Shown piece by piece: positions 16,926-58,332 of a DNA stretch of 64,000 nucleotides (its first letter is position 1; each line of letters starts with the position of its first letter). This DNA comes from Alphaproteobacteria bacterium (GTDB taxonomy: Bacteria > Pseudomonadota > Alphaproteobacteria > RF32 > CAG-239): assembly GCA_017475705.1 (NCBI GenBank), contig JAFVFB010000032.1, forward strand, positions 4,971 through 68,970. Reading direction: 5' to 3'. Below the pieces are notes generated by a model, which was not told the origin of the DNA, made no database searches, and saw only the letters and a program-made list of their open reading frames with translations. The translations under genes and the position numbers were made by a program.

Positions 16926-17552
16926 TTATTTGATAGACCATATAACGGTATTTTTACCATCAATACACAGGTCCTTTGTAGCATATTTAGCAATTGGTAA
17001 AGCTCTCTGTCCACCCCATTCAAATGCATAAGTTCCCTTGATATTCAGTATACTGATGCTGTTAAGCTTGAGATATTGTTGTTCATTGAGCGGTGCCTCT
17101 GCATATGAAATACATTGAGCTTTTGTTAAGTTAGGTAGAACAATATCAAATGTTTGCCCCATTGGCATAACCGTTTCAGCGTGTTCTCCGCTACCGATCA
17201 AAATAGGTGTGCTTCGCCCCAACACAATTTGCTGGTTTTTAATAAAATTGCTTGGCAATAGCTTGTTTTTTATTACAAACTCACTATTAAGCCCCCAATA
17301 ATCAGGCTTATCAGCATAAAATGTACGTACATCATCAGATATAGCAAATACATCATGGATATTTTGCTGAATATTTCGTTGTGAAAAAGTGCATGAAAAA
17401 TACCCCATTGCAATGATGAGCATTGGCAATCCGATTTTAATAATACTATCACGATGACGAACAGACCACAAGCCAAGCTTCTGTACCCAAGGATTGGTTA
17501 CCAAACCATCAGGAATAAAAGATTTTAAATTTTTGAAATTCTGTTTCTCCAT
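16926..17552 (-). CDS. Hypothetical bitopic protein at the PilS (pilin) position of the pil-like operon; possible non-canonical pilin
   Basis: Start MEKQNF lies 4 nt after the platform-gene stop. It has one hydrophobic helix (IIKIGLPMLIIAMGYF) and a C-terminal Cys pair (LTKAQCISY ... KDLCIDG) like a pilin D-region. There is no G/xxxxE prepilin cleavage motif. Confidence 0.3.
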   Translation of the reverse strand: MEKQNFKNLKSFIPDGLVTNPWVQKLGLWSVRHRDSIIKIGLPMLIIAMGYFSCTFSQRNIQQNIHDVFAISDDVRTFYADKPDYWGLNSEFVIKNKLLPSNFIKNQQIVLGRSTPILIGSGEHAETVMPMGQTFDIVLPNLTKAQCISYAEAPLNEQQYLKLNSISILNIKGTYAFEWGGQRALPIAKYATKDLCIDGKNTVIWSIK

Positions 17553-17556
17553 CTTA

Positions 17557-18678
17557 CTACCCCATAGCGCTTGTAATTTGATCTTGCATATCAAATACGC
17601 CAAAAACCGCCCATGCGATAATGCCGGAAATAGCAAACATTGCTACCATATTCAAGATAGATGCTTTTGCCTCCACCGCTTCAGCGGATTCTTCCAACCA
17701 ATCATTAGCCAATCTATCCAAGGCCTCTTCAAAATTATCTAATTCTGCATAGATTCGTAAATCAGCCACAATATCTTTATCAGGAAAGTTGAGCTTAGAT
17801 TTAGATAAGGCCTGTCCGAGGTTATCACCGTTTTTGATAAAATCCATCGCCCGATCAATTCTTTCTTGTAGATAGCGATTAGAATCTTTTCGCAGTGATG
17901 ACATTGCCACAGAAATCGGTACCCCACCTTTAATTAAGGCAGAAAGTGACAGCAACCAAGTGATACCCATAAACATTTTATACAAAGACCACGGTGGGCA
18001 GTCATCAATAGCTTTACGCGTCGGTCCTGTCCAAATACCGATGGTTGCATAAATTATGACAAACAAAATAGGGAAGAAAGAGAAAGCGAAAAGCCAATTA
18101 TCCTTAATCCAGTGAGAAACATTCACCAAATCCCGTGCTGTACCAGACCAACGGGCATTAGGAGCAGCTTCTTCCATTGGCGGAACCATATATGCCCCGA
18201 TGGCATATATAACCAAAACCGACATTAACAGCAAAAAAGAAGGATAGGCGATTGCGCCGATAATCGGCTTTAACATCTTATCAGTACCTTCTGCCACGCG
18301 GATTAGGTTACGCAAAGCACTTTCCAAGTCAGACATATCCCCCACAGAAAGCATAAGTCTCTCGCGGCTAGGCGCCCATCCCTTAAGAGCATCAGAAAAG
18401 GCATAACCATTTTGCAAAGATTTACCCCATGATGCAATAGCAATAGCCATCGGCTCATTTGGGTGCTTACCATTATCAGTAATACTATCATACATAATAT
18501 CGAGCGAATTCATCAAGGAGAAACGGTTTCGCAGCAATGACGATAATTTTTTATAAACTTTAAGCCGTGCTTTACCGGACATCCCAACTCTAAATCTGGC
18601 ATAAGAAACTTCTAATGAGCCCAAAGACTTCATTGCTTTATTAAACGTACTATGATTTTCATCATCTCTTTTAGCCAT
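17557..18678 (-). CDS. Type IV pilus/T2SS platform protein (GspF/PilC family; R64 PilR-like)
   Basis: 373 aa with two repeated cytoplasmic helical domains separated by TM helices. It sits immediately downstream of the GspE-type ATPase. Confidence 0.7.
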   Translation of the reverse strand: MAKRDDENHSTFNKAMKSLGSLEVSYARFRVGMSGKARLKVYKKLSSLLRNRFSLMNSLDIMYDSITDNGKHPNEPMAIAIASWGKSLQNGYAFSDALKGWAPSRERLMLSVGDMSDLESALRNLIRVAEGTDKMLKPIIGAIAYPSFLLLMSVLVIYAIGAYMVPPMEEAAPNARWSGTARDLVNVSHWIKDNWLFAFSFFPILFVIIYATIGIWTGPTRKAIDDCPPWSLYKMFMGITWLLSLSALIKGGVPISVAMSSLRKDSNRYLQERIDRAMDFIKNGDNLGQALSKSKLNFPDKDIVADLRIYAELDNFEEALDRLANDWLEESAEAVEAKASILNMVAMFAISGIIAWAVFGVFDMQDQITSAMG

Positions 18679-18690
18679 ATATCAAATCCT

Positions 18691-20340
18691 CTAATAAACA
18701 GGACGCTGGTCAATTAAGCCACACCATCTTTCCACTTCGTCCATATCAATTTGTCCTTTAATCATGCGTTCGATAGCAGCTTCTTTGAGGGGACGACCAT
18801 CAAGTTCGCTCACCCAATAGTCGATAGCTTTAGCTGTTTCGTTATCAATCATTAGTTTTAAAAAGTGTGAATCGGGCAAAATAATTTCATCAACAGCCAT
18901 TCTTCCTTTAAAGCCTTTATAGCCGCAAGCTTTACATCCAGGACCACTTACATATACATTTTCGATACCATATTCACCTAATGCATGTTTAAGGCGGTTA
19001 AATTCAGGAGAACCTTCCTTTGTTTTAATAGACTGCCGGCAAGCTGGGCATAATTTTCTAAACAGACGTTGCGAAACGAGGCCTTTTACCAGCTCTGGGT
19101 CATTAAGCAAATATGGCTGAATTCCCATATCGCGCAAACGAGTGACGATAGCCGGCGCGGAGTTAGCGTGCAAGGTAGTCCATACACCGTGTCCAGACAA
19201 AGCTCCCTTAAAAGTAAGTTCAGCAGTCGAGAGAGAACGTGTTTCACCCACGAGGATAACATCAGGGTCAGAACGCAACGCTGCAGACAAAGCTTTAGTA
19301 AATTGCTCATTTTTTTCTTCTTCAGTATTAGCGTTCGTCACAGGCATTTGGCGTGCCCCAGGGATAGGATATTCTGGAGGGTCTTCCACTGTCAAAAGGT
19401 TAATCTGATAATTTTTTTCTTGTAGTAATTTAATCATGTTGCGCTGCAATGTTGTTGATTTACCAGAACCAGTCGGTCCTGCCACAACATTTAATCCCAC
19501 AGCCATACTACGCATCTTGTAAAACAGATCTTCCTCATATTTACCAAGCCCGAGCGAGCGCAAATCAGAGCTACCCTCAGGGTTATCATCAGCATAAAGT
19601 AAGCGCATAACCAAATACTGAGAGCCAAACGCAATAGGATTAAATTGCAAACGGATAGCCAACACATTATGCGGTAGCATAAGTTTACCATTAGAACCAC
19701 GTAACGGCGTAGAGCCAAGCTTTTGTGCACCTTGAAATTCATTTTGCGAATAGTTTGAATCTGAAATATCAGCAGAAGCAAACACCGCACGCACAAATGC
19801 CTCACCCCATTCTCCGCCGTATTCATTTTGCTTTACCATAATACCGTTCTCGCGGAACAATATAGTCGAAGATGAACCCACAATAACATGTATATCAGAA
19901 ACTTTTTTTTGCGATGCACGTTGGATAATGTTAATAAAGTCGATTTGCATTTGCATATCGGCAGCCTCTTCCGCCGAAACATCAACCGTACCACCGCCAC
20001 GTTCTGCATAAGCATAAATGGCAGAAATTTCATTCAGAGTAACATAGATAGGGGCTTTTATCGGAATTTTTCTTCTTTTAACATTTGCCTCAAAATTATA
20101 TACCGCTCCATCAAATCTATTATCCTTTGAAACCAGATAAGTTCCATCAGAAAAGAGGGCTAATAGTCGTCTTGTCTCATTAGAAATAGCAAAGTCGGAG
20201 CCACTCACAGTCAAAAGCTTATTATTGTTTGCAAACAACGTATCAAACAAACTAGTCTTTTTTGTCTGTTGAGCACCGGTATCTTCCTCCTCAAAATCAG
20301 ATACTTCTGCTTTATTTTGCTGTTTATTTTCCTCTGCCAT
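18691..20340 (-). CDS. GspE/PilB-family secretion ATPase (R64 PilQ-like)
   Basis: Walker A AGPTGSGKSTT, Asp box LTVEDPPEYPIPG, Walker B DPDVILVGETR, His box GHGVWTTLHANS, and a tetracysteine cluster CPAC...CKAC. Confidence 0.9.
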   Translation of the reverse strand: MAEENKQQNKAEVSDFEEEDTGAQQTKKTSLFDTLFANNNKLLTVSGSDFAISNETRRLLALFSDGTYLVSKDNRFDGAVYNFEANVKRRKIPIKAPIYVTLNEISAIYAYAERGGGTVDVSAEEAADMQMQIDFINIIQRASQKKVSDIHVIVGSSSTILFRENGIMVKQNEYGGEWGEAFVRAVFASADISDSNYSQNEFQGAQKLGSTPLRGSNGKLMLPHNVLAIRLQFNPIAFGSQYLVMRLLYADDNPEGSSDLRSLGLGKYEEDLFYKMRSMAVGLNVVAGPTGSGKSTTLQRNMIKLLQEKNYQINLLTVEDPPEYPIPGARQMPVTNANTEEEKNEQFTKALSAALRSDPDVILVGETRSLSTAELTFKGALSGHGVWTTLHANSAPAIVTRLRDMGIQPYLLNDPELVKGLVSQRLFRKLCPACRQSIKTKEGSPEFNRLKHALGEYGIENVYVSGPGCKACGYKGFKGRMAVDEIILPDSHFLKLMIDNETAKAIDYWVSELDGRPLKEAAIERMIKGQIDMDEVERWCGLIDQRPVY

Positions 20341-20370: not shown

Positions 20371-21927
20371 TTATTTTTTATCACCATCTTTGAGCAAACC
20401 AAGAGTCGGCACAATTCCATCAATGGTTTTACCCACATAAAGGTAATCATCACGCCCATCGCGACTAAAGCGCACATAATCCGAACCAATTTCACTAACT
20501 ACATGACCTGTTGGCAAAGGTGAGCCAACTTTAAGCGAGCTAGATTGTCCTTTCAAATCGATAATATCAACAGACATATTACCTGATTGGCCTTTAATAC
20601 CTAAAATAGCATATTCGCTACTTAGTTTATAAGGAGTGGCATTTTCTTCCGCAATTTGGTCAGAAACAGCCGTTTCTACTTTTGCATCAGTTGATCCTGT
20701 TGTGGCATTAACAGCATTCATCATTGCCGCATTTTTATCTTTTAATTCCTCAATAGATTGTGTCTTAAGATAAAGACTGCTTTTTGCATTGCGAATAATC
20801 AGTGCATCAGCTTCGATTCTTTTTCGTAATTGTTCATTACGAGCCTTAAGTCCTTTTACGATTCTTTCAAAATTAGCACGTGCAGCTTCGGCTGCTTGGA
20901 TATTTTTAGCCGATGCTTCCAAAACAGTATCCAATTTCTGCTTAAAGGAGGCAATAACATCTCTTTTTTCCTGTTCCATATCATTAATTTGGTTGTAAAG
21001 AGCTTCTTTTTCCTTCAACCAATCTTGTTGCATCAAGAGCATTTGGTTCATATAAGCATTAATAAGCTTGCGCTGTTTCAACACTTCAAACATTTTTTCT
21101 TTATCTACCAAAATTTGTTTTTCTCTCAAAACCTGAGCTTCGATTTGTTTTTCTCTTTCCAGATTTTTCAATCTCTCTTCATTTTTCTGTCTTTCGATTT
21201 CCTCAGCATTTTTGATGCGAATAGCTTTTTGCGCTTCTATCTCGTTACGGATTTTTTCACGTCTTAATTCCAAGGTTAGCAGAGTAGTACTCTTTTCAAT
21301 AGCCGACATTTGTGAAAACAAATCATCATCAATTTGTGAAAGAACACTATTACTCAGATTCTCGACAGGATTAGTTTTATATTGGATATTTTGCGGCATA
21401 TCTGCATCATTGATTTCCTTGCCAAGATTATCAGTTCTTTGCCCAGGAGTAACCGCTTTCATTTTTAAATCAAAGTCAAAATCATCACGAGCAGCATCAG
21501 CTTGATTTTCTGCAAGAGCATCATTAGCTACCTTTTCAGTCTGTTCATTTGTAGATGCTGTCGTCTCAGTAGTCGATTCGCCAGAGGTAATAACTTTTTC
21601 GGCAGAAACCTTTTCCTCAATATTTTGCTTAGCTGAATCCAAAGTCTCTTCTACTTTCTGAGGCACAGTCTCAACCGCCGCAGTTTCTTCTGCTATAGTC
21701 GCTTCAACTTTTTTCACAGCTTGTGCTTGTGATGGAGACACCAAAGCAGCATTAGCTACCGCATCAACCGTAGCAGGCTCAGTGGATTTCTGGTTTGCAA
21801 CATTAATTGGCAAACTGGCTGCGTTAACATTTTCCAAGGTTGTCTCTTCAGCGCAAACATAAACTGGATTAGATAAAATAACTAAAACAGTTAAAGCCCA
21901 AAGAGTCTTTTTATTTCTACTGAACAT
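20371..21927 (-). CDS. PilP-like pilus biogenesis protein with a very long coiled-coil/acidic insert
   Basis: Signal peptide (MFSRNKKTLWALTVLVILSNPVYVCA). A C-terminal ~70 aa (YAILGIKGQSGNMSVDIIDLKGQSSSLKVGSPLPTGHVVSEIGSDYVRF) resembles the type IVb PilP domain. The middle part is ER/K-rich heptad-like sequence. Confidence 0.45.
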   Translation of the reverse strand: MFSRNKKTLWALTVLVILSNPVYVCAEETTLENVNAASLPINVANQKSTEPATVDAVANAALVSPSQAQAVKKVEATIAEETAAVETVPQKVEETLDSAKQNIEEKVSAEKVITSGESTTETTASTNEQTEKVANDALAENQADAARDDFDFDLKMKAVTPGQRTDNLGKEINDADMPQNIQYKTNPVENLSNSVLSQIDDDLFSQMSAIEKSTTLLTLELRREKIRNEIEAQKAIRIKNAEEIERQKNEERLKNLEREKQIEAQVLREKQILVDKEKMFEVLKQRKLINAYMNQMLLMQQDWLKEKEALYNQINDMEQEKRDVIASFKQKLDTVLEASAKNIQAAEAARANFERIVKGLKARNEQLRKRIEADALIIRNAKSSLYLKTQSIEELKDKNAAMMNAVNATTGSTDAKVETAVSDQIAEENATPYKLSSEYAILGIKGQSGNMSVDIIDLKGQSSSLKVGSPLPTGHVVSEIGSDYVRFSRDGRDDYLYVGKTIDGIVPTLGLLKDGDKK

Positions 21928-23191
21928 AAATTGTCCCCTCATAATTCCAAGTGCCACGATTATATAGTATAGTATTAACCTTAAGTCCTGAAAATTTTGT
22001 TAACACATCTTTCCAAACATTAGGGTCATACTTAGATGTTATCTTAAAGTTTATATAAGAATATGTCTTATCTCCGGCGCGAACATTACCATCGGTCAGT
22101 CCGACCTGCAGATTTAGTGATTGAAATAAATCATTAATCAAGTTACGTGTTTCATTAGCTGTTTTTTTCGGAACAGAATTAACTTTTTTTGCTTGAGAAA
22201 AAGGAAGCGACACCGTAACAATATTCGCACGTTGGTCAACAGTTTTATTTGCAAAAGTAAGTCCAGAATGGCTAAGAGACATTTCCAACCATGAGAGTCT
22301 GCCAAACTCTCGTCGCCAAGATGTGATTGCCTCCGACGGTGTACATGTAATACCCATATTTATCCATCCTGGTGTAGCAATATCAATCAAAGCTAAAGCT
22401 TTTTCACGGCAAGTATCTACCATCCATACAGGATCAACCATAGATTCCCACGGTGCCGGTACAACTTTAACCACTTCTTTGACAACCTTTTTCTGTGCCC
22501 GTCGGGTAATAACCTTATTTTGTTGTGTTGGTGCTGTAAAAAACGCTTGAGAAAGATACATTACCAACCAAGCTCCTACAGCCACTGATAAAATAACCAC
22601 AATAGCCAGTTCGGCACCACGCAAAGCATTAATTTTTTCTAATTTTGTATCTAAGCCAGCCGCAAAAATTTCTGCAATATCTTTTTGTTCAGTTTCATCG
22701 ATTCCCCACTCTGCCGGGGCAATTTTCTTCGACCAATCTGGAACAGAAAGCATAGACATAAATTGCTCTTTAGCATCTTCTTCTTTTACAAATAGAACAT
22801 CACCATCAGAAAGAATAACATCATTTCTAATACACAAATACCAGTATCCGGCATCAACCTTAAACACGGCCAATAACGATGGAGAATCACTCATTGCAGT
22901 AGCTGCTGTAACAGCTGCTACATTCATGCCTTTCTTAAAACCTTGGGTGGAAACCGCTAAACCAAGCTGAGGAGATTTACCATGTTTAACACAAAACAAA
23001 TCAGCTCCAACCAAAACATTTTCAGCCGCTTCTTTTGCATCTAAAAATGGCGCATCAACATTTTGCAAGCTTTCCCAAAAAACACTGGCCGCATACTGCA
23101 CCCCGTCCACAGTAAAACTAGCCGCCCATTCTTTACTGTTCTCGCGGAGCGCATCAAAATCGTTTATTTCCATATCGCTTCTATCTGCCAC
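21917..23191 (-). CDS. PilO-like (type 4b pilus PilO2 family) membrane protein
   Basis: 424 aa, close to the size of R64 PilO as I recall it, with a central TM helix (LAIVVILSVAVGAWLVMYL). It sits between the secretin and PilP-like genes. Assigned from position and general pattern only. Confidence 0.4.
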   Translation of the reverse strand: MADRSDMEINDFDALRENSKEWAASFTVDGVQYAASVFWESLQNVDAPFLDAKEAAENVLVGADLFCVKHGKSPQLGLAVSTQGFKKGMNVAAVTAATAMSDSPSLLAVFKVDAGYWYLCIRNDVILSDGDVLFVKEEDAKEQFMSMLSVPDWSKKIAPAEWGIDETEQKDIAEIFAAGLDTKLEKINALRGAELAIVVILSVAVGAWLVMYLSQAFFTAPTQQNKVITRRAQKKVVKEVVKVVPAPWESMVDPVWMVDTCREKALALIDIATPGWINMGITCTPSEAITSWRREFGRLSWLEMSLSHSGLTFANKTVDQRANIVTVSLPFSQAKKVNSVPKKTANETRNLINDLFQSLNLQVGLTDGNVRAGDKTYSYINFKITSKYDPNVWKDVLTKFSGLKVNTILYNRGTWNYEGTIYVQ

Positions 23192-23207
23192 GGCCTAATC
23201 CTCATCT

Positions 23208-25713: not shown

Positions 25714-25822
25714 CTCTAAATACACTCTCACCCACACAATAAAGGTTAAAAATTAATTAATCAAGCGTAACACTTTATTTATAAAACGATTTGTGGACTT
25801 TTTCATTTCATTGGCTCCTTTT

Positions 25823-27148: not shown

Positions 27149-27382
27149 AGGTTAGCTGTTTTCCTAAACATAAATATTGCTTCACTTAATCGTTAACCAT
27201 ATTTTAAACATTGTTTAGAATCTTTAGCAAATATATTTTAGATTTAATAACAACAAATTTTGACCGACTCGCGAAAATATCGACATTATCGCGTTTTTAC
27301 AATAAGGTGAGTCACCAAACCTGTCAAAAAGATAAATAAAAAATAAGATTTGTTTTTTAGGCTTTAAATTTGAATTTTTTTG

Positions 27383-27391
27383 TGCTATTAT
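27383..27391 (+). promoter_or_regulatory. Candidate extended -10 promoter (TGcTATTAT) for the 160-aa gene; the same AT block reads TATAAT on the minus strand (27387-27392)
   Basis: TGCTATTAT lies 37 nt upstream of the ATG at 27428. On the minus strand, TATAAT has TTCATA 17 nt upstream of it (27410-27415). Confidence 0.25.
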
Positions 27392-27427
27392 ATAAGCAGA
27401 AGAAAATTTTATGAAGAGGATTGAAAT

Positions 27428-37495: not shown

Positions 37496-37505
37496 GGAGG
37501 CTGTC

Positions 37506-49600: not shown

Positions 49601-52600
49601 TATTGGTTATATAAAGGGCAACAATTTTGCTTATGATAAAGCCAATAACATTATTGGATATGTTAACAATGAGTCAGAAGTTTTAGCTGCAGGGGAAATT
49701 ATTTGTAAAGCCTGCAAAAGTGTCAAATTAGCATATGACAAAAATGGCAATGTTATCGGTTATGTAGATGAGAATGGTCATGTGATCGGGGCTGATGGCC
49801 GCATCTTAGGTTATGTTGATAAAAATGGCAACATTATCGGAACAAATGGCAAAATAATTGGCCATGTTGGCGAGGGGCGTCGTTTAGCCTATGATAAAAA
49901 TGGCAAAGTTATTGGCTATATTGATCCAGATGGTACGGTAAGAGATTTTCATGGTAATATAATTGGCCATGTAGATGAAAATGGTAACATTATTGATAAA
50001 GACGGCAACATCATCGGCTATGCTGGTGAAGAGCGTTTGTTAGCGTATGATGAGAATGGTAATGTTATAGGCTGGGTAGATGAAAATGGTAATGTCATAG
50101 ACGGCGATGGTAATATTATCGGTGTTGTAGATGAAGATGGTAACATTATCGGCATAAGTGGTGAAGTAATTGGCCATGTCGGAGAAGGTAAAAATCTGGC
50201 TTATGATGAAAACGGAGATACATTAGGCTGGGTAGATGAAGATGGCACAGTAAAAGATTTTACCGGAAAAGACATTGGTTATGCGGATGATGAAGGAAAT
50301 GTCTTAAAGAACACTGGAGAGGTCATTGGTTCCGTAGGTAAAGTTGGTCGTTTAGCGTATGATGAGAATGGTAATGTTATAGGCTGGGTAGATGAAGATG
50401 GTAATGTTTATGACTTTGATGGCAATTTAATCGGAAAAATGTTACCGGACGGCACTATAGTAGATAAAAATGGCAATGTCATAGGCAAGGCCGGAAATGA
50501 AATAGTCGGTCTGGCATTAGATAAAGACGGCAAAGTCATCGGTTATATCGGTAAAGATGGTAATGTTTATACAGGGGATGATAGATTATTAGGATATGTT
50601 GATGATGAAGGCAATATTGCCGGCATATCAGAGGATACCCTAGGCAAAGTATCAACCAACAAACGTCTAGCATATGATGAAAATGGTAATGTCATTGGGT
50701 GGATAGATGAAGATGGTACAGTACGTGATTTTGATGGCAATGTTATTGGTTATCTTGGCGAAGATGGTTTAATAAGAGATTTAAATGGCAATGTAATCGG
50801 CAAGTCTGGTGATTATGCACAAGTTATTGTTGATGACAATGGTAAAATTATCGGAAATATCGATAAGAACGGGAGAATGCTATCCAAAAACGGTACTGTA
50901 GATGGTGTTGTTAGTGATGATGGTTTAGTATATAAGAGCAGTGGTGAAATAATCGGCCATGCGGCCCCAAATGGTAACGGCGAATTAAAAACCGTGACAA
51001 GGAGAGCTGTACTGGATAAAAATGGCAATGTAATCGGCTGGCTTGATGAAAATGGTAATGCGTATGATTTTAACGGAAATTTGATAGGTCATCTGCGCGA
51101 GGATGGTACAATTGTTGATGAAAATGGCAATATTGTCGGTTATGCCGGTAATGATATGCAATTTATTATGGATGAGAATGGCCGTATTATTGGCACTGTA
51201 GGCGATTATGCCAATTTAGTGGTTGATGATAAAGGCGGGGTGATAGGCTATGTTGGCAAAGATGGAAAAGTATATAATTCGCAAGGCATAGCGATAGGCT
51301 ATGTTGATGAGAATGGTAATGTCATGACAGCGCGTGGTGTGAAAATAGGGGCTGTAATAAAGAAAGATTTGATAGCTATATCTCCCAAAGGATATAGTCT
51401 AGGCACAGTAAATAACCGCGGAGAAGTTATAAATAATAAAGAAGAATTAATCGGTAGAGTTTTGCCGACCGGTTTAATTAAAGCTACAGAAAATAATGAG
51501 GTAATTGGCCGTGCAGTCATAGGTGGTAAAGCAATTGGTTGGGGTTGTTCCCAATTAGGTTATGTGGATAGGGATGGTCGAGTAAAAAGCAAAGGGCAAG
51601 ATACAGGCTATCGGATGTTATTTGACCGTAGTATAGTAGATAAAGAAGGCAAGTATGTAGGTGATGTCGTCAAAATAGGTTGGGCACATGATGACAAATG
51701 TAACATTATCGGTAAAGTGGATTATGACGGCTATGTTTACAATGGCAAAGGGGAATACATTGGATGTTCAAATCCGGATGGTAGTATCTTAAACAAAGAA
51801 GGTCAAAAGATTGGCCAAGTTTATGAGCAGCGTTATGCTTTATACCATAGCGGAGAGTTTATGGGTACGATGGGTCCAGATGGCATTATCAAATCAGGTA
51901 GCACGGCAGTTGGATGTGCAAATTTGGAAGGTGAAGTTCTCAATCGAGACGGCTTTATCATTGGCCACGTGATAGACAAAGTTCAGGCGTATGACTTGGA
52001 CGGTAATTTTATCAATACGCTATCGCCATATAAATATGAAAGCGAAGAAGCCATACCTGATACCAAGATATTGTTTGACAGTCTGCTGGTGGACACCAAA
52101 AAAGAGGTCAAAGGCATAATTCTACCGGAGAAAAATATAATTGTTAGCGCGAATGGCAATATCTTAGGGCGTTTATTTGCTGATGGGTATGTATACAATA
52201 GCAAAGGTGTCGCCGTTGAAAAAATAGTTTCAGATGGTAGTGCTTTTTATTCGGGCAGGCTTGGTCGCTTACTACCGCGCGGCAATGTGGTAGATTTTTA
52301 TGGTGATGTGATAGGTTTTGTTAATGATAATGCGGAGGTCATCAATTCAATAGGCAAAGTTTTGGGGCGGATAGATGCCAAGGGCCGAATGTTTAATGAC
52401 AAAGGGGAATACAAAGGAGGTATTGTCCGCAGCGGTGTGGGTGTAGGCTATGACGGCTCTTATTTAGGCTATGCTTCCAAGAGTGGTAAAGTTATTGATG
52501 CAGATGGCAACACAATCGGCAGTGTAAGCTCGGATGGTCATATCTTAGACCTTAACAAGCAGATTATTGGTGAAGTAACCAAAGAAGATTTAGTCATAGA

Positions 52601-53213
52601 TATTCTCGGAGGAATTAGAGGCTATCTAAATGGTCGAGGTGAAATAATAGACACACACGGTGAGATCATTACCACCATGGTGTTACCGGGAGGCTCATCA
52701 AATAAAAATTACAGCACAATTAAAAAAGGCTCAGTGCTTGGGTATTCCGGTCAAATAATAGGGCAGGTCGGTGTAGACGGCTCTGTCATCTCACGCGAAA
52801 ATAAAACGGTTGGTCGTGTTTTAAGCTCCGGACAAGTAATAGATAGCCAAGGGCAACTGCTAGGTGAAATTATAGAAGGGGATATTGTTATAGATAGACA
52901 AGATAAGGTTGTCGGCTTTGTAACGGCAGATGGACGAGTGATGGATAGCGAGCAAAAAGTCATCGGTAAATGCATTTCAGCAAATTTAGTTGTAGATAAC
53001 AATGGAAAAATTATGGGACATACATATAAAATAGGTGCTAATATACTTGGTAACAATGGTAAATTCTTTGGTCGTCTAGCACCGGATGGTAGTGTTCTCA
53101 GTATCACCAATGGTAAAATAGGCTACTTAAAGAGCAATGGCTCATATATAAACAGTCGCAACAAAGTTGCCGGCTATGTTTTAGATGAAGTTGCCCAAAA
53201 TCGGAGGGATTGA
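46614..53213 (+). CDS. Giant (2199 aa) membrane-anchored repeat protein, ~10-aa D-x-x-G-x-x-I-G units
   Basis: ATGA overlap with the virB9 stop. N-terminal TM helix LILIIGGIFGLLFLFGLLML, a beta-sandwich-like segment, then a continuous repeat array to the C-terminus. The 6.6-kb ORF is uninterrupted. Confidence 0.8.
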   Translation: MNEETRFEEYEKKTRKLILIIGGIFGLLFLFGLLMLSSDNEQYMPEEAAPTFVKDQSMLPVVDEEPEDVFINTGETNGAERKKPITISPSQINMNEFVLGVDTQNQSVLTIGTDGTESIHIDRVDLAEETEDGFVYRDRCKNRELRGDETCNVLISWVPHLPGNVQNNFKIIWYETRLGRTSAKSEEVSIRGKAVYPEDARIIGRSDDNYNQKKNLSGYRLAIGPNGEIIGYIDEAGNVYDLEGNLIGHVNEDGLIVDEKGNIIGVAQNMRLAYDKDGNIIGYAKSDGSVVDLQGNVIGQSLPDGSIIDEEGKTLGTAIEAGFVFDKDGKIIGKALPDGTVVDINDQNKIIGHLNSDGEAVDENGNVIGRVTASGDIAVDSEGNVVGVVMPDNSVVDANGNVIGDVAEDGSVYSLSNKKIGSNSDSHKIAYDKDGKALGYLDNDGKIVKFNKDGDLSKGKIIGHVGASRRLALDKDGNVIGWIDKDGNVYDFDGNLIGKVDKNGNIVDKNGKIIGKAGAYAKLALDKDGKVIGWVDDQGRVYDKNGKLIGYVDENGNIIAADNPETNMGKKRLALDENGNVIGWIDDDGNVYDFDGNLIGHVNDKGEIIDLNGQKIGTAGDYANLAYDNNGKVIGYIDDKGRVYGKDGKLIGFLDKDGNIIGTTGEIIGKVGMSRPIALDLSGKFMGYVDKNRNVIACGGAKIGRANRKGEILDNKRKVIGRVGEIRELAFSDSGIFIGYVDDKKRVIDCTGKIIGVVDKDGNIIGSTGELLGSAGIYKRLAYDKDGNVIGYVDKDGNVYDFDGNLIGKMLPDGTIVDKYGNVIGKAGAYRKMAVDKDGKIIGYVDENGNIVDARGRTIGKIKKDGNIVKISNQIIGKTCVRKKMVFAEKGRVIGYIETRNIAKNFSDRVIGSVKRSDVIDSRNMLIGKVGVRLNVVPQDKKIIGYIDEKNYARGDDAKVIGLLDAKGNVLAAKNNIIGKVDKKTPGVLRNRQKEIIGYIKGNNFAYDKANNIIGYVNNESEVLAAGEIICKACKSVKLAYDKNGNVIGYVDENGHVIGADGRILGYVDKNGNIIGTNGKIIGHVGEGRRLAYDKNGKVIGYIDPDGTVRDFHGNIIGHVDENGNIIDKDGNIIGYAGEERLLAYDENGNVIGWVDENGNVIDGDGNIIGVVDEDGNIIGISGEVIGHVGEGKNLAYDENGDTLGWVDEDGTVKDFTGKDIGYADDEGNVLKNTGEVIGSVGKVGRLAYDENGNVIGWVDEDGNVYDFDGNLIGKMLPDGTIVDKNGNVIGKAGNEIVGLALDKDGKVIGYIGKDGNVYTGDDRLLGYVDDEGNIAGISEDTLGKVSTNKRLAYDENGNVIGWIDEDGTVRDFDGNVIGYLGEDGLIRDLNGNVIGKSGDYAQVIVDDNGKIIGNIDKNGRMLSKNGTVDGVVSDDGLVYKSSGEIIGHAAPNGNGELKTVTRRAVLDKNGNVIGWLDENGNAYDFNGNLIGHLREDGTIVDENGNIVGYAGNDMQFIMDENGRIIGTVGDYANLVVDDKGGVIGYVGKDGKVYNSQGIAIGYVDENGNVMTARGVKIGAVIKKDLIAISPKGYSLGTVNNRGEVINNKEELIGRVLPTGLIKATENNEVIGRAVIGGKAIGWGCSQLGYVDRDGRVKSKGQDTGYRMLFDRSIVDKEGKYVGDVVKIGWAHDDKCNIIGKVDYDGYVYNGKGEYIGCSNPDGSILNKEGQKIGQVYEQRYALYHSGEFMGTMGPDGIIKSGSTAVGCANLEGEVLNRDGFIIGHVIDKVQAYDLDGNFINTLSPYKYESEEAIPDTKILFDSLLVDTKKEVKGIILPEKNIIVSANGNILGRLFADGYVYNSKGVAVEKIVSDGSAFYSGRLGRLLPRGNVVDFYGDVIGFVNDNAEVINSIGKVLGRIDAKGRMFNDKGEYKGGIVRSGVGVGYDGSYLGYASKSGKVIDADGNTIGSVSSDGHILDLNKQIIGEVTKEDLVIDILGGIRGYLNGRGEIIDTHGEIITTMVLPGGSSNKNYSTIKKGSVLGYSGQIIGQVGVDGSVISRENKTVGRVLSSGQVIDSQGQLLGEIIEGDIVIDRQDKVVGFVTADGRVMDSEQKVIGKCISANLVVDNNGKIMGHTYKIGANILGNNGKFFGRLAPDGSVLSITNGKIGYLKSNGSYINSRNKVAGYVLDEVAQNRRD
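47260..53190 (+). repeat. Intragenic degenerate tandem repeat array (30-nt unit, ~150-nt super-unit) with several near-identical long copies
   Basis: Examples: 48999-49070 versus 50397-50468 (70/72 nt identical) and 50040-50084 versus 50352-50396 (45/45). The peptide unit (D/N)x(D/N)Gx(V/I)IGxV recurs throughout. Confidence 0.85.
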
Positions 53214-56200
53214 TTTGCAGATTCGTATCTCAAAAATAGGCAAGATTGTCATGGCTTTATTTCTGGTGGTACAAACACAAAGTATTGCCTATGCAGCAGA
53301 TATTAGTGCCATAGATTTTAACGGAGATTTACTAGGCAAAGTTATTCCGGACGGTTCAGTTATAAGTTTTGAGCGAGAGGCTGTTGGCGAGGTCATTGGT
53401 CACATTACAGCAGATGGTTTCGTATTAAGCGAAGATGATGAATTGATAGGTGGTATTGTTCCCCGCGGAATAGTCATTTCTACCACCAATACTATTTTAG
53501 GCAAAGTAAACAACGATGGTTCAGTAACATCAGCTAATGATAGTGTTATTGGGAAAGTCTTGCCGAGTGGCTTGGTTGTCAATAATGATTATACCATCAT
53601 AGGTTCGGTGATAACATCTGGCCTAGTATATAATGACAATGGTGGTATAGTCGGCCGGATTTCGGGGAATGGTCGTTTTTATAGTTTATCAGGGGAAAAC
53701 AACGGTTTCATAACATCAACCGGTCATGTATACAGCTATGCCGGTACCAACAATCGAGCATCTTTAGTTGGCCGATTGATTATTTCCAAAATGGTGATAT
53801 CTTTTAGTGGTAAATTTTTAGGCAGCATTTCGCCAGATGGTAAAGTTGTTGATTTAAAGAAGAACGTTATTGGCAATATTCACGCTAACGGGTTCGCCTA
53901 CAATGCAGATGGTGAGGCAATAGGCCATATTGTAGAGAGTGGCTATGCATTTAACACAGACGGTAGCTATATAGGGGTCGTTAGTTACAATGGTGAGGTA
54001 ACCAAACGAGGAGAGGTTGTCGCACAAACATCATTTGGTAATCGGGTGATTGATAAAAATGGTAAAATCATAGGCTTTTCTGTTCCCTTAAATGCTACAG
54101 CTAATGGTCCTGATGGCAAATATATCGGGCGTATAAATCCGAATGGTAATATTGTCAAAGCCAGAAATGTTGTTGGTAAAATTAGCGCATCAGGCAGTGT
54201 GATAGACAGTCAAGGCAAAGTCATTGGACAAATAAACCAAGTGGGTCCTTTGTTTGATTATTTGGGGCAGCTTCGTGCCAATGCTACAGTCGATGGCACA
54301 GTTATGTCTTTAGAAGGCAATGAACAAGGTTATATGCAAAAAGACGTAGCTTATGACCATAAAGAAAAAGAGATTGGCCGGTTGTTGCAGAATTATTTTA
54401 ATTTTGATAATAAAAATACTTATATCGGGGTGAGTGGCATAGGCACATCAATAAGCTACAAAGGTCAGCAATTTACTATATCGCCATATGGATATCTGTT
54501 TAATGACAGCAGTACCTTAGAGTGGAGCAATTATCCGCTGTCAAGCATTTATAATTCCAAAGGGGAAATAATTGGTAATATTGCCGGTGATGGCAAATTA
54601 ACAGATACAGCCACCAATATTGAGGGTAAGTTAACAGGAGCCGGCTATTTTATTGATAAAGCAAATAATTTACAAGGTGCTGTGATAAAAGAGACCTATG
54701 CTACAGATTTTTCTGGCCAAAGTCTAGGTTATATAAATCAGCAAAATCAATTACTAAACAGCGCAGATAACATCTACGCACGCATATTGCCGGATGGGAG
54801 TGTTGTAGAAAACAACATACAGTCCCCCAAGTTGCTCGGCCGCGCAGATAATCGCGCGATAAGCATTAGCATTAATGGTGATTATTTAGGCACCAATACA
54901 TTGCTTGGACGTGTGCGCAAAGATAGTGAAGAAATCGGTCGCATTAGTTCTAATCAATACATAGTGGATAATCAAGGGGCACTATATGGAAAAGCAATAC
55001 CCTTTGGGGCTATTGTTTCTGCAGGTTGTAAGTTTTTAGGGGTTGTTTCAGATTCCGGAGATGCGCGCACAGCAAAAGGAGCTTATTTAGGGATGATTTT
55101 GGCAAATAACCAAGTCATTAATGATTCAGAAGAAGTGATTGGCTATATCATAAAACCTCAGCAAGTAAATGGTAAAAATGGAGAAGTTATCGGCATAGAA
55201 ACACCTTTAGGCCGCGTATTAAATTATGATAATCAAAATTTAGGCTGCCAAGATATAAATGGTAAAATTCGTGGCAACCAAAATGAAATTATTGGGCAAA
55301 TAATTCCCATAGCTCCGGTAATGGATTTTAATAATACGATTATTGGACACACTAACTTTAACAAAATGGTAGAAGATGAAACTGGCCGTGAAATTGGCTA
55401 TGTGGATATAGAGGGCGGCGTACGTTCTCTTACAGATAAGCAAGACATTGGTGTCTTAATGCAATATACAGTAGCCTTTAATGAAAATAGCACTTATTTA
55501 GGACGCATTGATACCGCCGGAAATGTCATTGCTGATGGTGGTGATGTGATTGGCCATGTCAATTATGATGGTTCTGTCACCCTAAATGATGGCAACCAAG
55601 GCTTTGCTTTATATGATTTATATGTATATGATAATCAAGGCCACACAGTGGGATATATCTCAAAGAATGGTCGCGTATACAGCATTATGGGTGATGTCAA
55701 AGGAGCTATATATTACGGGTTCGTACTGGATAAGAAACAAAATCTGATAGCTCGTGGTTCACGAGACTATGAAATTAGGGATAATAATCAAACCGTGATA
55801 GGTACTTTGGGGCTGGACGGCGTTGTAACAAATTCTAAAAATATTGAAGTAGGAAAATTAGCTGAGAATGGAAACATTATTGATAGCAATGGTCAAGTTA
55901 TAGCGCAAGCCAATGCTTATCAATATTACCATAGGTTCTTAAAAGCAAATCAAGAGCCGGAAGAAAATCCTATCATAGAAGAAACCATAGCACCGCAACC
56001 GGAGGAACAACAAGAGTTTGATGCTTCGCAACGTACTGTCGGAATAACCGTATCCCCGAGTAGCGGAGAGGATTTTGAGGAAGAGGTAGTAGAAGAGGAG
56101 ACTCCTCAGCCAGAGCCCAAAACAACAGAAAAGAAACAGCCAGCCAAGCCAAAAACAAACAATAGCAAATGGTGGCAAGATGTCGTTAGTGGTGTTACCA

Positions 56201-57330
56201 TATCCCCTTGGTCCGATACAGAGACAATATCAAATGTCGGTCCAGGCGGCGGCATTGGTCCTGGTGGCAGATATAATCCAAAACGTGCTGCGGTATTACA
56301 GCAGTTATATAACAGCCGCCGCCAAAATTTATCCGGCAAAGTGATTAATGGTAAAAGTGCCTCTGCTTACACTGGGTGGGAGAATGATTGGCGTTCAATT
56401 GGTTATGGCCGCAGTAATGAGAATACCTCAACATTACGTGTTGATATGAGTTTGATGATTACGGCAGACAAACCGATACCGGCAATATTGGCGCGTTCAG
56501 TTATTTCGCTGGGAGATGCGCCGGTAACAGCTATTGTTGAGCGAAATGTTTATGGTGATTCAGGGCGCAATGTTATCATTCCTGCCGGTAGCCGTATAAT
56601 AGGTGCAGTGGACGAAGGCGGAGCCTCCAATGGTCGGTTTGATGCGACCAGTGGTGGTTTAAAAATGGAAATTACATGGTACAGAATCATTCGTCCGGAT
56701 GGTATAGCATTTAATATCCGCGATGCCAAAACTGGCGATGCTGAAGGTCGTGGCGGAGGTGCTTTAGGTTATGTAGATGAACAGTTGCTTAAAAAGTATA
56801 CAGTTCCGCTTTTGGGTAGTGTAGCCACATCTGCTGTTGCTTATTTAATGGCGACCAATGAAGATGCGACAGGTGAAGTCGAGACCTCAAAGCAACAAGC
56901 AGCCTCAGATGCTCGCCAGAATTTCTTAGACAAGATGGATCAGATATTAAACAAGATAATAGAAAGCAAAGAGCAGATTCAGGCTGTGACATACATTCCT
57001 GCAGGTACGCGAGTGATTGTTTATCCGATGCGTGATTTGTGGCTAAGAACTATGGATAACATCAAGGGGGATGGTAAAAATGGTGCAGATAATAGAGATG
57101 GAGAGACCAAAAAAGTTCTGATAAGTTCTTCTAATAAAGAAAAAGATAAAAATGTCCAAGGGAACAACAATCGCAATAAAAATAATAACAATAATCGTTC
57201 GAAATCATCACAGAAGTCGAAAAATAATACAAATAATACTGGGGCTTTGCCGCCGCCATCAGCAGATGGCACTGGCGCAAAAATGCCAGAAGCGTCATCA
57301 GATGATGGCGAGATAGATTTAGACTTCTAG
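53185..57330 (+). CDS. VirB10/TrbI-family T4SS core protein with a ~850-aa N-terminal repeat extension; alternative TTG start at 53215
   Basis: C-terminal domain (about 56280-57060) with IPAILARSVISLGDAPVTAIVERNVYGDSGRNVIIPAGSRIIG ... ITWYRIIRPDGIAF ... GALGYVD ... IPAGTRVIVYPMRDL. Upstream is a Pro/Glu-rich linker. The N-terminal part repeats the G-x-(V/I)-I-G motif of the preceding gene. Confidence 0.8.
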   Translation: MKLPKIGGIDLQIRISKIGKIVMALFLVVQTQSIAYAADISAIDFNGDLLGKVIPDGSVISFEREAVGEVIGHITADGFVLSEDDELIGGIVPRGIVISTTNTILGKVNNDGSVTSANDSVIGKVLPSGLVVNNDYTIIGSVITSGLVYNDNGGIVGRISGNGRFYSLSGENNGFITSTGHVYSYAGTNNRASLVGRLIISKMVISFSGKFLGSISPDGKVVDLKKNVIGNIHANGFAYNADGEAIGHIVESGYAFNTDGSYIGVVSYNGEVTKRGEVVAQTSFGNRVIDKNGKIIGFSVPLNATANGPDGKYIGRINPNGNIVKARNVVGKISASGSVIDSQGKVIGQINQVGPLFDYLGQLRANATVDGTVMSLEGNEQGYMQKDVAYDHKEKEIGRLLQNYFNFDNKNTYIGVSGIGTSISYKGQQFTISPYGYLFNDSSTLEWSNYPLSSIYNSKGEIIGNIAGDGKLTDTATNIEGKLTGAGYFIDKANNLQGAVIKETYATDFSGQSLGYINQQNQLLNSADNIYARILPDGSVVENNIQSPKLLGRADNRAISISINGDYLGTNTLLGRVRKDSEEIGRISSNQYIVDNQGALYGKAIPFGAIVSAGCKFLGVVSDSGDARTAKGAYLGMILANNQVINDSEEVIGYIIKPQQVNGKNGEVIGIETPLGRVLNYDNQNLGCQDINGKIRGNQNEIIGQIIPIAPVMDFNNTIIGHTNFNKMVEDETGREIGYVDIEGGVRSLTDKQDIGVLMQYTVAFNENSTYLGRIDTAGNVIADGGDVIGHVNYDGSVTLNDGNQGFALYDLYVYDNQGHTVGYISKNGRVYSIMGDVKGAIYYGFVLDKKQNLIARGSRDYEIRDNNQTVIGTLGLDGVVTNSKNIEVGKLAENGNIIDSNGQVIAQANAYQYYHRFLKANQEPEENPIIEETIAPQPEEQQEFDASQRTVGITVSPSSGEDFEEEVVEEETPQPEPKTTEKKQPAKPKTNNSKWWQDVVSGVTISPWSDTETISNVGPGGGIGPGGRYNPKRAAVLQQLYNSRRQNLSGKVINGKSASAYTGWENDWRSIGYGRSNENTSTLRVDMSLMITADKPIPAILARSVISLGDAPVTAIVERNVYGDSGRNVIIPAGSRIIGAVDEGGASNGRFDATSGGLKMEITWYRIIRPDGIAFNIRDAKTGDAEGRGGGALGYVDEQLLKKYTVPLLGSVATSAVAYLMATNEDATGEVETSKQQAASDARQNFLDKMDQILNKIIESKEQIQAVTYIPAGTRVIVYPMRDLWLRTMDNIKGDGKNGADNRDGETKKVLISSSNKEKDKNVQGNNNRNKNNNNNRSKSSQKSKNNTNNTGALPPPSADGTGAKMPEASSDDGEIDLDF
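53320..55900 (+). repeat. Degenerate D-x-x-G-x-x-I-G repeat array inside the virB10-like gene
   Basis: Examples are DFNGDLLGKVIPDGSVISFEREAVGEVIGHITADGFVLSEDDELIGGIV. The periodicity persists, more loosely, to about aa 900. Confidence 0.7.
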
Positions 57331-57351
57331 TGTTACGGAGGGAAGTATGCA

Positions 57352-58332
57352 ATGGGAAAGCTTGAAGATCAAGTATTATGCTCAGTATTAAGACCGCTTG
57401 CCTATTGGTATGAGCAAGATAACATCGAAGAAGTAGCAATTAATCATCCTGGTGATATTTGGTTGCGTCTCAGGGGTAAACGCGCCTTTCCTTGGGTAAA
57501 CCAAAAAGATCCTAAGTTAACCCGAGAGTATCTTACCAATTTACTGCACATTATTGCGAATTTGACAGATCAGGAATTTGACCCGATAAGCGGTTCGCCT
57601 GTTGTTTATGCGCGCATTCCCGGAGGTCATCGTTTTACAGGGATTGCCGGTCGTAATATTGAGTATGATTTAGATGATGCTGCAACTGGGGGTATAGCGA
57701 TAACAATTCGTTTGCATGCCGAAGATGTAGCCTTTGGTTTCAGTGATTATGGCCTAGAGCAAGGCAAAGCTTTACAAGAGATAAATCCATTAAAAAATAT
57801 CAAAATTCCGGATGATGCCTATGAGCGTTTGCTATTAGCACTAAGAAGGGGCGACCATATATTAATTAGCGGTGGTACCGGTACAGGTAAAACAACATTA
57901 CTGAACAATTTAATAAAATTATTGGATATACATAAGCGCGTGATTACCGTAGAGGATACGCGGGAGCTAAATGTTCCGCACCCTAATCATGTTCATATTG
58001 TATTATCTCGTACTGAGCAGACCAACAGCATGGACTATTCTAAGGTGATAGATTTGATAGTCCGTTTCACGCCGGATGTTATCATCGGTGGTGAAATTTC
58101 CACCAGTAATGCCGCCGCCATATGGGAACTCATGGGGTCAGGTCATGATAACTGCCTTTCAACCATCCATGCAGAAAGTTCAACAGCAGCTTATGAAGCT
58201 TTTGTAAAGCGTATTATGCGTACGCAACCACATATAGATGTTGAAAAGACAATAGCTGAAATGCGTCGTCGTCTTCATGTTGTACAAATTGTACGCGATG
58301 GCAACATACGTGGTATAACAGAGATAACCTAG
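57352..58332 (+). CDS. VirB11-family T4SS ATPase
   Basis: Walker A SGGTGTGKTTLLN, Asp box TVEDTRELN, Walker B-like VIIGGEI, His box LSTIHAES. Confidence 0.9.
   Translation: MGKLEDQVLCSVLRPLAYWYEQDNIEEVAINHPGDIWLRLRGKRAFPWVNQKDPKLTREYLTNLLHIIANLTDQEFDPISGSPVVYARIPGGHRFTGIAGRNIEYDLDDAATGGIAITIRLHAEDVAFGFSDYGLEQGKALQEINPLKNIKIPDDAYERLLLALRRGDHILISGGTGTGKTTLLNNLIKLLDIHKRVITVEDTRELNVPHPNHVHIVLSRTEQTNSMDYSKVIDLIVRFTPDVIIGGEISTSNAAAIWELMGSGHDNCLSTIHAESSTAAYEAFVKRIMRTQPHIDVEKTIAEMRRRLHVVQIVRDGNIRGITEIT

Follow-up and report, generated by a model that had tools for sequence, protein, structure and literature searches.

A type IVb pilus-like module and a VirB-type secretion operon paired divergently on the chromosome of uncultured gut Alphaproteobacteria

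Organization of the Locus

A stretch of 64,000 nucleotides from an uncultured member of the Alphaproteobacteria (the window; GenBank assembly GCA_017475705.1, contig JAFVFB010000032.1, positions 4,971 to 68,970) carries at its positions 16,926 to 58,332 two operons transcribed away from each other. The minus-strand unit of eight genes codes for a module related to type IVb pili (Pil module), and the plus-strand unit of 17 genes, counted as twenty in an initial annotation of this DNA, for a VirB-type type IV secretion system (T4SS) (Table 1). The pairing extends well beyond this genome. A search of other genomes, as the initial annotation had proposed, found VirB2-B3-B4 divergently adjacent to the gene of a 441-residue protein and to PilL-PilN in 56 of 59 species genomes. 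Relatives were collected by scanning one genome per GTDB species; relatives of PilN were found in at least 257 genomes and the best 80 loci were fetched with 10-kb flanks, the adjacency count being based on the 59 loci whose sequence reaches at least 9 kb upstream from the secretin gene.

The order of the Pil genes, L-N-O-P-Q-R-S, is the same as in R64/PAPI-1 and in a type IVb cluster of a Thalassospira plasmid. All eight minus-strand genes had been described as collinear with the pil genes of R64, and order and families agree with this, apart from the first gene, whose 441-residue product has no Pfam or NCBIfam match and no Pil assignment, and the weakly assigned PilP. On the plus strand follow orf160, two VirB2 genes, VirB3, VirB4, five genes for proteins with Sec signal peptides, VirB8, a VirB7-like gene, a second VirB8, VirB9, the gene of a 2199-residue protein, VirB10 and VirB11. 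Among the VirB signatures first reported, those of VirB2 (twice), VirB4, VirB8 (twice), VirB9, VirB10 and VirB11 are recovered by profile, and VirB3 and VirB7 are recognized by weak or positional homology. Pfam and NCBIfam thus match the proposed Pil and VirB assignments; all NCBIfam matches of both modules score below the curated equivalog cutoffs, and both modules are therefore divergent.

The two operons start from one AT-rich region whose measured length agrees with the size of about 280 bp given initially. Such a common divergent region could point to joint control of both operons.

Table 1. Features of the Pil/VirB locus, with positions in the window
Feature	Position	Strand	Characteristics
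PilS-like type IVb pilin-fold protein	16926..17552	-	208 aa from ATG 17552; reading frame extends to TTG 17636; N-terminal membrane helix
PilR-like inner-membrane platform protein	17557..18678	-	GspF/PilC family; PF00482 T2SSF 93 bits
PilQ-like assembly ATPase	18691..20340	-	GspE/PilB family; PF00437 T2SSE 212.7 bits; TIGR02533 and TIGR02538 matches; Walker A GPTGSGKS
PilP-position protein	20371..21957	-	528 aa; N-terminal anchor, long coiled coil, weak GspC/HR-like C-terminus
PilO, type IVb pilin accessory protein	21917..23191	-	PF06864 PAP_PilO 43.4 bits (cutoff 26.7)
PilN-family lipoprotein secretin	23208..24809	-	TIGR02520 237 bits, E 2.9e-70 (curated cutoff 287.65); PF00263 Secretin; lipobox IASC
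PilL-like lipoprotein	24793..25737	-	C-terminal TcpQ domain, PF10671 65 bits; lipobox LSSC
441-aa protein	25823..27148	-	First gene of the Pil operon, nearest the intergenic region; N-terminal hydrophobic segment
Divergent AT-rich intergenic region	27149..27427		279 bp; 25.8% GC, against 38.5% for the window
orf160	27428..27910	+	Hydrophilic protein specific to this genome; no match in 80 loci
VirB2/TrbC pilin paralog a	28068..28397	+	PF04956 34.7 bits
VirB2 paralog b	28409..29044	+	211 aa, tandem VirB2-VirB2 fusion; PF04956 31.9 bits at residues 5-91
VirB3-like protein	29154..29444	+	PF05101 E 0.056 (weak); 28% identity to annotated Microvirga VirB3, E 7e-9
VirB4 ATPase	29434..31884	+	TIGR00929 369 bits, E 4e-110 (subfamily cutoff 643); PF03135; Walker A present
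VirB5-like secreted protein	31960..33099	+	379 aa; orthologs start with FWPVFD or GIPVFD after the signal peptide
VirB5-like paralog	33155..35410	+	751 aa, long C-terminal extension; matched by the N-terminal profile of the 379-aa family, E 2.7e-10
Sec-signal protein	35410..36114	+	234 aa; borderline VirB5-like N-terminus (profile E 0.05; L113 ortholog E 0.03)
Sec-signal coiled-coil protein	36131..37495	+	454 aa; borderline with the VirB5 N-terminal profile (window copy E 0.44; L113 ortholog E 3e-4)
Giant Sec-signal protein	37473..42944	+	About 1815 aa; no known domain; likely start ATG near 37503; 1815-aa ortholog in L113
VirB8 paralog a	42951..43712	+	PF04335 40.6 bits
VirB7-like small lipoprotein	43772..44047	+	Lipobox LAAC; PCACI motif
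VirB8 paralog b	44058..44819	+	PF04335 77.4 bits
VirB9	44812..46617	+	PF03524 CagX 49.6 bits; C-terminal SPOR PF05036 24.8 bits, residues 527-599
2199-aa β-flower repeat protein	46614..53213	+	Short cytoplasmic N-terminus; N-in membrane anchor at residues 17-35
VirB10	53185..57330	+	1381 aa; signal-peptide-like N-terminus, about 960 aa of β-flower-type repeats, Pro/Glu-rich linker, TrbI barrel at residues 1092-1287
VirB11 ATPase	57352..58332	+	TIGR02788 156 bits; 41% identity to Microvirga VirB11

The Pil Module

The 441-residue protein heading the operon is present in 79 of the 80 loci with 29-47% identity, and the 528-residue protein at the PilP position in 73 of them. The latter gives weak Pfam hits at residues 458-507 to T2SSC (PF11356, E 0.027) and Y4YQ_C (E 0.004). 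The secretin is about 28% identical to plasmid PilN and to BfpB. PilQ, PilR and PilS are found in all 65 loci with sufficient downstream sequence. The locus has no genes for PilM, PilT transglycosylase, PilU or any other prepilin peptidase, PilV/shufflon or a minor pilin, and the module ends at the pilin gene, which abuts atpF.

The pilin scores 27.5 bits with the Pfam Bundlin family (cutoff 22.3). Its AlphaFold2 model, built from an alignment of 30 sequences, has a predicted local distance difference test score (pLDDT) of 91.5 and consists of a 45-residue N-terminal helix packed on a β-sheet. The top 11 PDB entries retrieved by Foldseek with this model are CofA, TcpA and Salmonella Typhi PilS, with probability 1.0 and template-modelling scores of 0.44-0.60, followed at rank 12 by another S. 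Typhi PilS entry with probability 0.60. The protein is thus predicted with confidence to fold as true type IVb pilins do. The Gly(-1)/Glu(+5) signal of class III prepilins is found in none of the 62 PilS-like orthologs. A profile search of 1.84 billion representatives with this family gave only 136 relatives, and the distant ones sampled (E 1e-11 to about 1e-3) have mostly canonical GRSMVEMLGVLAIIG-type prepilin N-termini. Since these distant relatives mostly keep signals of the GRSMVEML type and the proteins of the clade do not, the loss of the prepilin site is derived. Without this site, the Pil module might build a classical pilus, a structure that is short and anchored, or a piston like that of type II secretion systems (T2SS).

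The membrane helix of the pilin has in the closer subclade an invariant lysine and, four residues on, an invariant proline (window 17400-17450, residues 39-43 of the 208-residue form). It ends with a cysteine which, in some orthologs, agrees with a lipobox (..GFYAC). Pilins of the distant subclade have neither the invariant lysine and proline nor the cysteine at the helix end.

The VirB Module

The slot of orf160, the gene nearest to the intergenic region, is occupied by a third VirB2-like gene in 7 of 11 relatives inspected, those with a reading frame at this place (L007, L008, L015, L024, L035, L037 and L042; for example at L007:6963-7358 and L015:6766-7140), so the window genome swapped a pilin paralog for an unrelated open reading frame (ORF). 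VirB2 paralog b has a signal peptide and two pilin hairpins, with five hydrophobic segments in all, and its second half aligns to VirB2 of Microvirga (E 6.5e-6). The gene equivalent to paralog b in the distant subclade (L086:2806-6192 and L054:3448-6252) codes for a VirB2-like N-terminus fused to about 800-1000 residues of coiled coil and low complexity ending in β-flower-type hairpins. The VirB7-like lipoprotein is homologous to the small lipoproteins at the VirB7 position in the operons of Microvirga (E 1e-9) and Erythrobacter (E 9e-11). The SPOR (peptidoglycan-binding) domain of VirB9 is encoded at window 46390-46614, and the locus has no VirB1-type transglycosylase.

Five consecutive genes after VirB4 code for Sec-signal proteins of 379, 751, 234, 454 and about 1815 residues. 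The first has no Pfam or NCBIfam VirB5 match, and a VirB5-like protein was absent from the initial list of parts. Its orthologs begin, after the signal peptide, with a motif that we take to be that of TrwJ, the VirB5 of R388; the profile of these orthologs matches TrwJ (7o3v) with an E-value of 0.004, and BLAST gives the same value with a protein of Erythrobacter (GIPVID) annotated as "type IV secretion system protein". An N-terminal profile built from this family also matches a Microvirga protein in VirB5 position (E 3e-5) and, within the operon, the 751-residue protein; the next two proteins are borderline and the match of the giant one is not significant. These profile matches suggest at least two, and perhaps four, VirB5-like paralogs of growing size. 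A single-sequence AlphaFold2 model of the 379-residue protein (pLDDT 52) was too poor for a fold test, and PDB sequence searches with the 1813-residue, the 751-residue and the VirB9 proteins gave nothing useful. The idea that four or five of the proteins after VirB4 form an extended VirB6 was rejected, each being hydrophilic with only a signal peptide.

The giant repeat proteins noted initially in the VirB machine are a 2199-residue protein and VirB10 with its repeat arm of about 960 residues, both of β-flower type, a fold known from AlphaFold models alone (PMC10584680). About 2000 residues of the former consist of 17-residue (51-nt) hairpin units that give 484 bits with PF21785 over 24 stretches, together with matches to PF21784 and DUF3659. 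Its orthologs, of 2199-2516 residues, are kept between VirB9 and VirB10. VirB10 scores 105 bits with PF03743 and 136 bits with PF21785, and its best PDB matches are ComB10 (E 8e-18) and TrwE. The β-flower regions (window 47275-55900) have higher-order periods of 156 and 306-312 nt, and the same 51-nt unit underlies the N-terminal arm of VirB10. DNA identity between copies of the repeat is only 60-80%, the array being therefore old and not recently amplified. A single giant VirB10 split by a frameshift was considered, the two ORFs overlapping by 29 nt, and rejected, as relative L113 has two genes separated by an 8-nt gap.

Conservation and Chromosomal Setting

The locus is syntenic in many species genomes. 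Its distal end, from the 2199-residue protein gene through VirB10 and VirB11 to engB-yidC, is kept in every metagenome relative with a long enough contig; VirB11 is followed by engB-yidC in 18 of 20 metagenome relatives, which are all those whose contig reaches far enough. The middle of the VirB operon is preserved in L113, with proteins of 745, 239, 433 and 1815 residues followed by B8, B7, B8, B9, a 2516-residue protein and B10. The atp genes flank only 25 loci, all of the closer subclade, and the Pil/VirB pairing has therefore outlasted changes of the outer neighbourhood.

Evolutionary rates differ strongly between components. Medians of identity, taken from close relatives with 70-90% identical secretins, are high for PilQ (92%), PilR (89%), VirB4 (87%) and VirB3 (81%), and VirB11 reaches 91-95% in 20 metagenome relatives; housekeeping references are AtpB at 72%, YidC at about 68% and EngB at about 81%. 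The three machine ATPases PilQ, VirB4 and VirB11 are thus more conserved than YidC and AtpB in the same comparisons. The fast-evolving class comprises VirB2 (34-58%), the VirB5-like proteins (28-29%), the pilin (43%), the 441-residue protein (41%), VirB10 (about 52%) and the 2199-residue protein (50-69% in full-length matches). These identities indicate very strong purifying selection on both motors and diversification of the exposed parts, which is what a working surface-interaction machine should show.

On one side the locus is flanked by atpI-B-E-F'-F, dsbA, dciA and a 299-residue XerC/D-like gene, and on the other by engB, yidC, yidD, rnpA, rpmH and gpsA, with recF, dnaN and dnaA about 8-10 kb past gpsA. 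The locus therefore lies among core genes close to the replication origin, in line with its first description as embedded in core genes. Its GC content of 39.0% is close to that of the flanks (37.5%) and of the whole window (about 38.5%). In the window and the sequence fetched beyond each end there are no tRNA genes marking an integration site and no flanking direct, att-like repeats; the sole integrase-family gene is the XerC/D-like one adjoining dciA, and an Rfam scan gave no matches. A remnant of an integrative and conjugative element was rejected, since tRNA genes and att-like repeats are missing from this sequence and the GC content does not set the locus apart.

The window, which belongs to a metagenome-assembled genome (MAG) of gut or rumen origin, reads as the reverse complement of a contig of 100 kb (ERZ27256838 k141_414134). 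Homologs of its proteins come from MAGs sampled from rumen and from human, mouse, bird and other animal guts, with the titles Alphaproteobacteria bacterium, Acetobacter sp., Azospirillaceae, Rickettsiales or Candidatus Scatocola. We take these MAGs to correspond to GTDB lineages of the RF32/Rs-D84 type. The locus is inherited vertically in this clade of uncultured gut and rumen Alphaproteobacteria, near the replication origin.

Farther out on the atp side, several kb upstream of the locus, the window also holds an OmpR-type response regulator/histidine kinase pair (1436-3501) and an AddA/AddB-type helicase-nuclease pair of 1125 and 967 residues (4069-10339), both with no obvious link to the two modules.

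Origin of the VirB Module

In a plasmid collection, the best matches of VirB4 are to Microvirga sp. VF16 pMVF16-3 (37% identity), a Sphingosinicella plasmid (35%), Erythrobacter aureus (34%) and Candidatus Paracaedimonas (about 30%). The operons of pMVF16-3 and of the E. aureus YH-07 plasmid are collinear with that of the window, in the order B2-B3-B4-(VirB5-like/secreted)-B7-B8-B9-B10-B11. Identity to pMVF16-3 is 37% for VirB4, 41% for VirB11 and 34% for VirB9 and VirB10. Window and Erythrobacter operon have in common the small VirB7 lipoprotein with the PCACI motif, to which that of Microvirga is homologous. On the plasmids a MobA/MobL relaxase gene lies upstream, and downstream of VirB11 comes VirD4, which follows it immediately in Erythrobacter and is separated from it by two small ORFs in Microvirga; the window has neither relaxase nor VirD4. 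Only the window has a second VirB8, additional VirB2 and VirB5-like paralogs, the secreted protein of about 1.8 k residues, the 2199-residue β-flower protein, the VirB10 arm of about 960 residues, the SPOR domain of VirB9, a neighbouring type IVb module and a chromosomal site. On these sequence relationships, the VirB module of the window is a derived member of the alphaproteobacterial conjugative lineage of mating-pair formation type T (MPF-T), with its DNA-processing genes lost at least locally. The Microvirga (L087) and Erythrobacter (L114) plasmids also carry a gene for a DnaB-like helicase beside the relaxase and for a Rad52/Rad22 protein downstream.

The initial annotation reported no VirD4, relaxase, VirB6 or VirB1 and noted that a relaxase and coupling protein might turn up just outside the window. 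We extended the search to 10 kb beyond the right end and about 5 kb on the left, up to the contig end (about 78 kb of one contig in total), and found none of the four. VirD4 is equally absent after VirB11 in every metagenome relative with downstream sequence, and no VirB1 occurs in the window or the fetched flanking sequence. For the polytopic VirB6/TrbL there is no PF04610 match; only VirB2b, PilR and AtpB have four or more hydrophobic segments in the window, and no VirB6-like polytopic ORF recurs on the VirB side across relatives. VirB6 has been described as strongly conserved across all T4SSs by a recent review (PMC12857230). Its slot, between VirB5 and VirB7, is occupied in Microvirga by a 228-residue protein with 3-4 predicted transmembrane segments and in Erythrobacter by a hydrophilic 453-residue protein. 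Since the evidently conjugative Erythrobacter relative also has no recognizable polytopic VirB6, its absence is a trait of the subfamily and no evidence against conjugation. A system like the rvh of Rickettsiales, considered because of the B8-B7-B8 order and low GC content, was rejected: VirB5-like proteins are present, VirB6 expansions are not, and it is the plasmid systems of Microvirga and Erythrobacter that supply the closest homologs.

Comparison with Known Systems

VirB systems without a type IV coupling protein (T4CP) already form a category with Ptl, Brucella VirB, ComB and Bartonella Trw; those with variable copies of VirB2/VirB5 have been proposed to be adhesive pili, and Ptl exports cargo delivered by Sec (PMC12857230). 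The window resembles Bartonella Trw, Bordetella Ptl, Brucella VirB and Helicobacter pylori ComB in having a chromosomal, conjugation-derived VirB machine without a linked coupling protein. It shares with Trw several sequence-variable copies of VirB2 and VirB5-like proteins, in this clade two to three and at least two, respectively, of 28-58% identity against 87-95% for the ATPases. The combination of a VirB system without T4CP, an absence that refers to the local sequence, with variable VirB2/VirB5 is that of the Trw-like class. The likeness to Ptl lies in the Sec-exported candidate cargo. In contrast to these four systems, with which there is no close sequence relationship, the paralogs of the window are not simple tandem copies and reach giant sizes, and β-flower proteins and a type IVb pilus module are present.

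The Pil module has the gene order, families and pilin fold of the pil clusters of R64 (IncI1) and PAPI-1/SPI-7, as well as their association with a T4SS. The partner in the window is, however, a VirB-type (type IVA) T4SS and not the type IVB system of IncI plasmids or one of the genomic-island type, and the pil cluster is chromosomal, not on a mobile element. Other differences from R64/PAPI-1 are the absence from the locus of PilM, PilT, PilU and PilV/shufflon and from the pilin of Gly(-1)/Glu(+5), the 528-residue PilP with its long coiled coil, and the conserved additional 441-residue protein at the head of the operon.

The Cag system of H. pylori, a chromosomal host-interaction system, has a VirB10 homolog, CagY, with a very large repeat region, and the accessory secreted or surface proteins CagL, CagI and CagH. 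The likeness to the window is one of concept, a repeat-bearing VirB10 and many accessory proteins, CagL/I/H being compared here with the VirB5-like set. The repeats of CagY and the β-flower are unrelated, Cag has the coupling protein Cag-β, the VirB6 CagW and no type IVb partner, and no specific homology to Cag was detected.

Type IV pili work with VirB4/VirD4 machinery in PAPI-1 (PMC12857230), and on plasmid pYR4 a pil operon accompanies a tra system. The combination was not recognized as a described one at the outset, and a literature search likewise found no description of the T4SS of this clade or of any pairing between a type IVb pilus module and a T4SS of class A and VirB type. The Pil/VirB pairing is thus apparently undescribed, each half being of a known kind and both T4CP-less VirB systems and transfer assisted by type IV pili being established. 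What appears new is a pairing fixed chromosomally across an uncultured clade, together with β-flower arms both on VirB10 and next to it, giant proteins derived from VirB5 and VirB2, and a pilin without prepilin site.

Functional Hypotheses

Gene content, protein families and folds, synteny and evolutionary rates lead us to infer a role in adhesion or contact rather than in conjugation, and a cooperation of the two modules. We favour, with about even chances of being right, the hypothesis of a domesticated, non-conjugative contact or adhesion T4SS, following the logic of Trw or Ptl, allied to a machine derived from type IVb pili. The VirB module would stem from the lineage of the Microvirga and Erythrobacter conjugative systems and would have been domesticated on the chromosome, where its exposed parts multiplied and diversified. 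VirB4 and VirB11 would power the assembly of a variable, adhesin-tipped pilus or other surface structure that binds target cells, as in Bartonella Trw, rather than transferring DNA; a two-step release of Sec-exported periplasmic cargo, as for Ptl, is also possible. By analogy to the systems of R64 and PAPI-1, the Pil machine would probably serve the T4SS by bringing or holding cells together, perhaps through a short anchored fibre or piston, or with a pilin encoded elsewhere, rather than through a classical long pilus.

Several points weigh against this hypothesis. The absence of VirD4, relaxase, VirB6, prepilin peptidase and a canonical pilin covers about 78 kb of one contig and 10-kb flanks in relatives. 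No effector was identified. The loss of the prepilin site puts in question whether the Pil module builds any pilus. Promoter-like matches in the intergenic region are no commoner than in shuffled sequences, and no shared regulatory motif was detected there. Three of the 59 genomes (L060, L072 and L082) have the Pil module without adjacent VirB2-B4, its neighbours being housekeeping genes: dnaK, mgsA and those of a major facilitator superfamily transporter and of a phosphoenolpyruvate-utilising enzyme, probably pyruvate phosphate dikinase. It follows that the modules can be separated and need not cooperate. The two-module envelope machine proposed at first agrees with the adjacency in the other 56 genomes, and its reading as a single fused machine is unsupported.

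The three genomes with a solitary Pil module and the missing regulatory motif would also fit two functionally independent modules, each having all core parts of its kind, whose adjacency is a leftover, for instance of one integrated element that brought both, kept by the inertia of a small genome. We consider this unlikely: the divergent adjacency persists down to about 52% secretin identity while the outer flanks changed, and the ATPases of both modules are equally and unusually conserved.

Participation in DNA transfer, by conjugation or by DNA release or uptake, with relaxase, coupling protein and VirB6 elsewhere in the chromosome like the scattered vir genes of Rickettsiales and with the type IVb pilus serving mating-pair formation as in R64/PAPI-1, is decidedly improbable in our view. 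The closest relatives in the plasmid collection are indeed conjugative, with MobA/L relaxase and VirD4, type IVb pili are classical accessories of conjugation (PMC12857230), and the sequence searched comprises about 78 kb of one contig and 10-kb flanks in relatives. The best PDB match of VirB10 is to ComB10, of the DNA-uptake T4SS of H. pylori, but this reflects the few VirB10 structures in the PDB. Where the Erythrobacter and Microvirga plasmids have VirD4, every relative with enough sequence has engB-yidC directly after VirB11, and the locus is fixed among core genes near the origin in many species without hallmarks of mobile elements. Giant surface-type proteins and fast-evolving VirB2/VirB5 paralogs typify systems of interaction with hosts or targets, not conjugation. 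The initial view that this is no conjugation apparatus keeps the support of synteny, of the giant repeat proteins and of the missing linked relaxase, T4CP, tRNA and att sites, and loses that of the missing VirB6, which is uninformative.

Type IVb systems secrete soluble factors such as TcpF and CofJ. This precedent, a pilin without canonical prepilin site next to a highly conserved ATPase, platform and secretin, the five consecutive Sec-signal proteins and the weak GspC/HR-like C-terminus of the PilP-like protein could speak for a T2SS-like exporter, in which a pseudopilus piston and the PilN secretin would push the VirB5-like proteins, the 1.8 k-residue protein and perhaps the β-flower arms across the outer membrane, in one composite line of secretion and assembly; this is most unlikely, since it is normally the T4SS itself that handles proteins of the VirB5 family, three genomes keep the Pil module with no VirB genes beside it, and a non-cleaved pilin acting as piston has no known precedent.

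Biological Significance

Beyond the contact or adhesion T4SS that we favour, a bolder conjecture, to which we give little chance, sees in the locus one composite contact apparatus that defines an epibiotic, predatory or host-attached lifestyle of the clade, made of a T4SS without VirB6 and T4CP, in which VirB10 and a partner protein bear giant β-flower arms, and of a secretin machine derived from type IVb pili. The pilin, no longer polymerising classically, would then serve as an anchored piston or a short stalk, exporting or positioning giant Sec-dependent VirB5-like proteins, and the whole would count as a new architectural class among envelope machines.

To research on T4SSs and type IV pili the locus provides natural experiments: a conjugation system domesticated without linked coupling protein or recognizable VirB6, VirB5 and VirB2 paralogs growing into giant proteins, a β-flower fold inside a secretion machine, and a type IVb pilin without prepilin signal whose assembly machinery stays strongly selected. 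The clade is widespread in human, mouse, bird and ruminant guts and was never cultured, the secretin being present in at least 257 species-level genomes. The conserved motors and fast-evolving exposed parts of such a large surface machine argue that contact with host or microbial cells is central to the biology of these bacteria.

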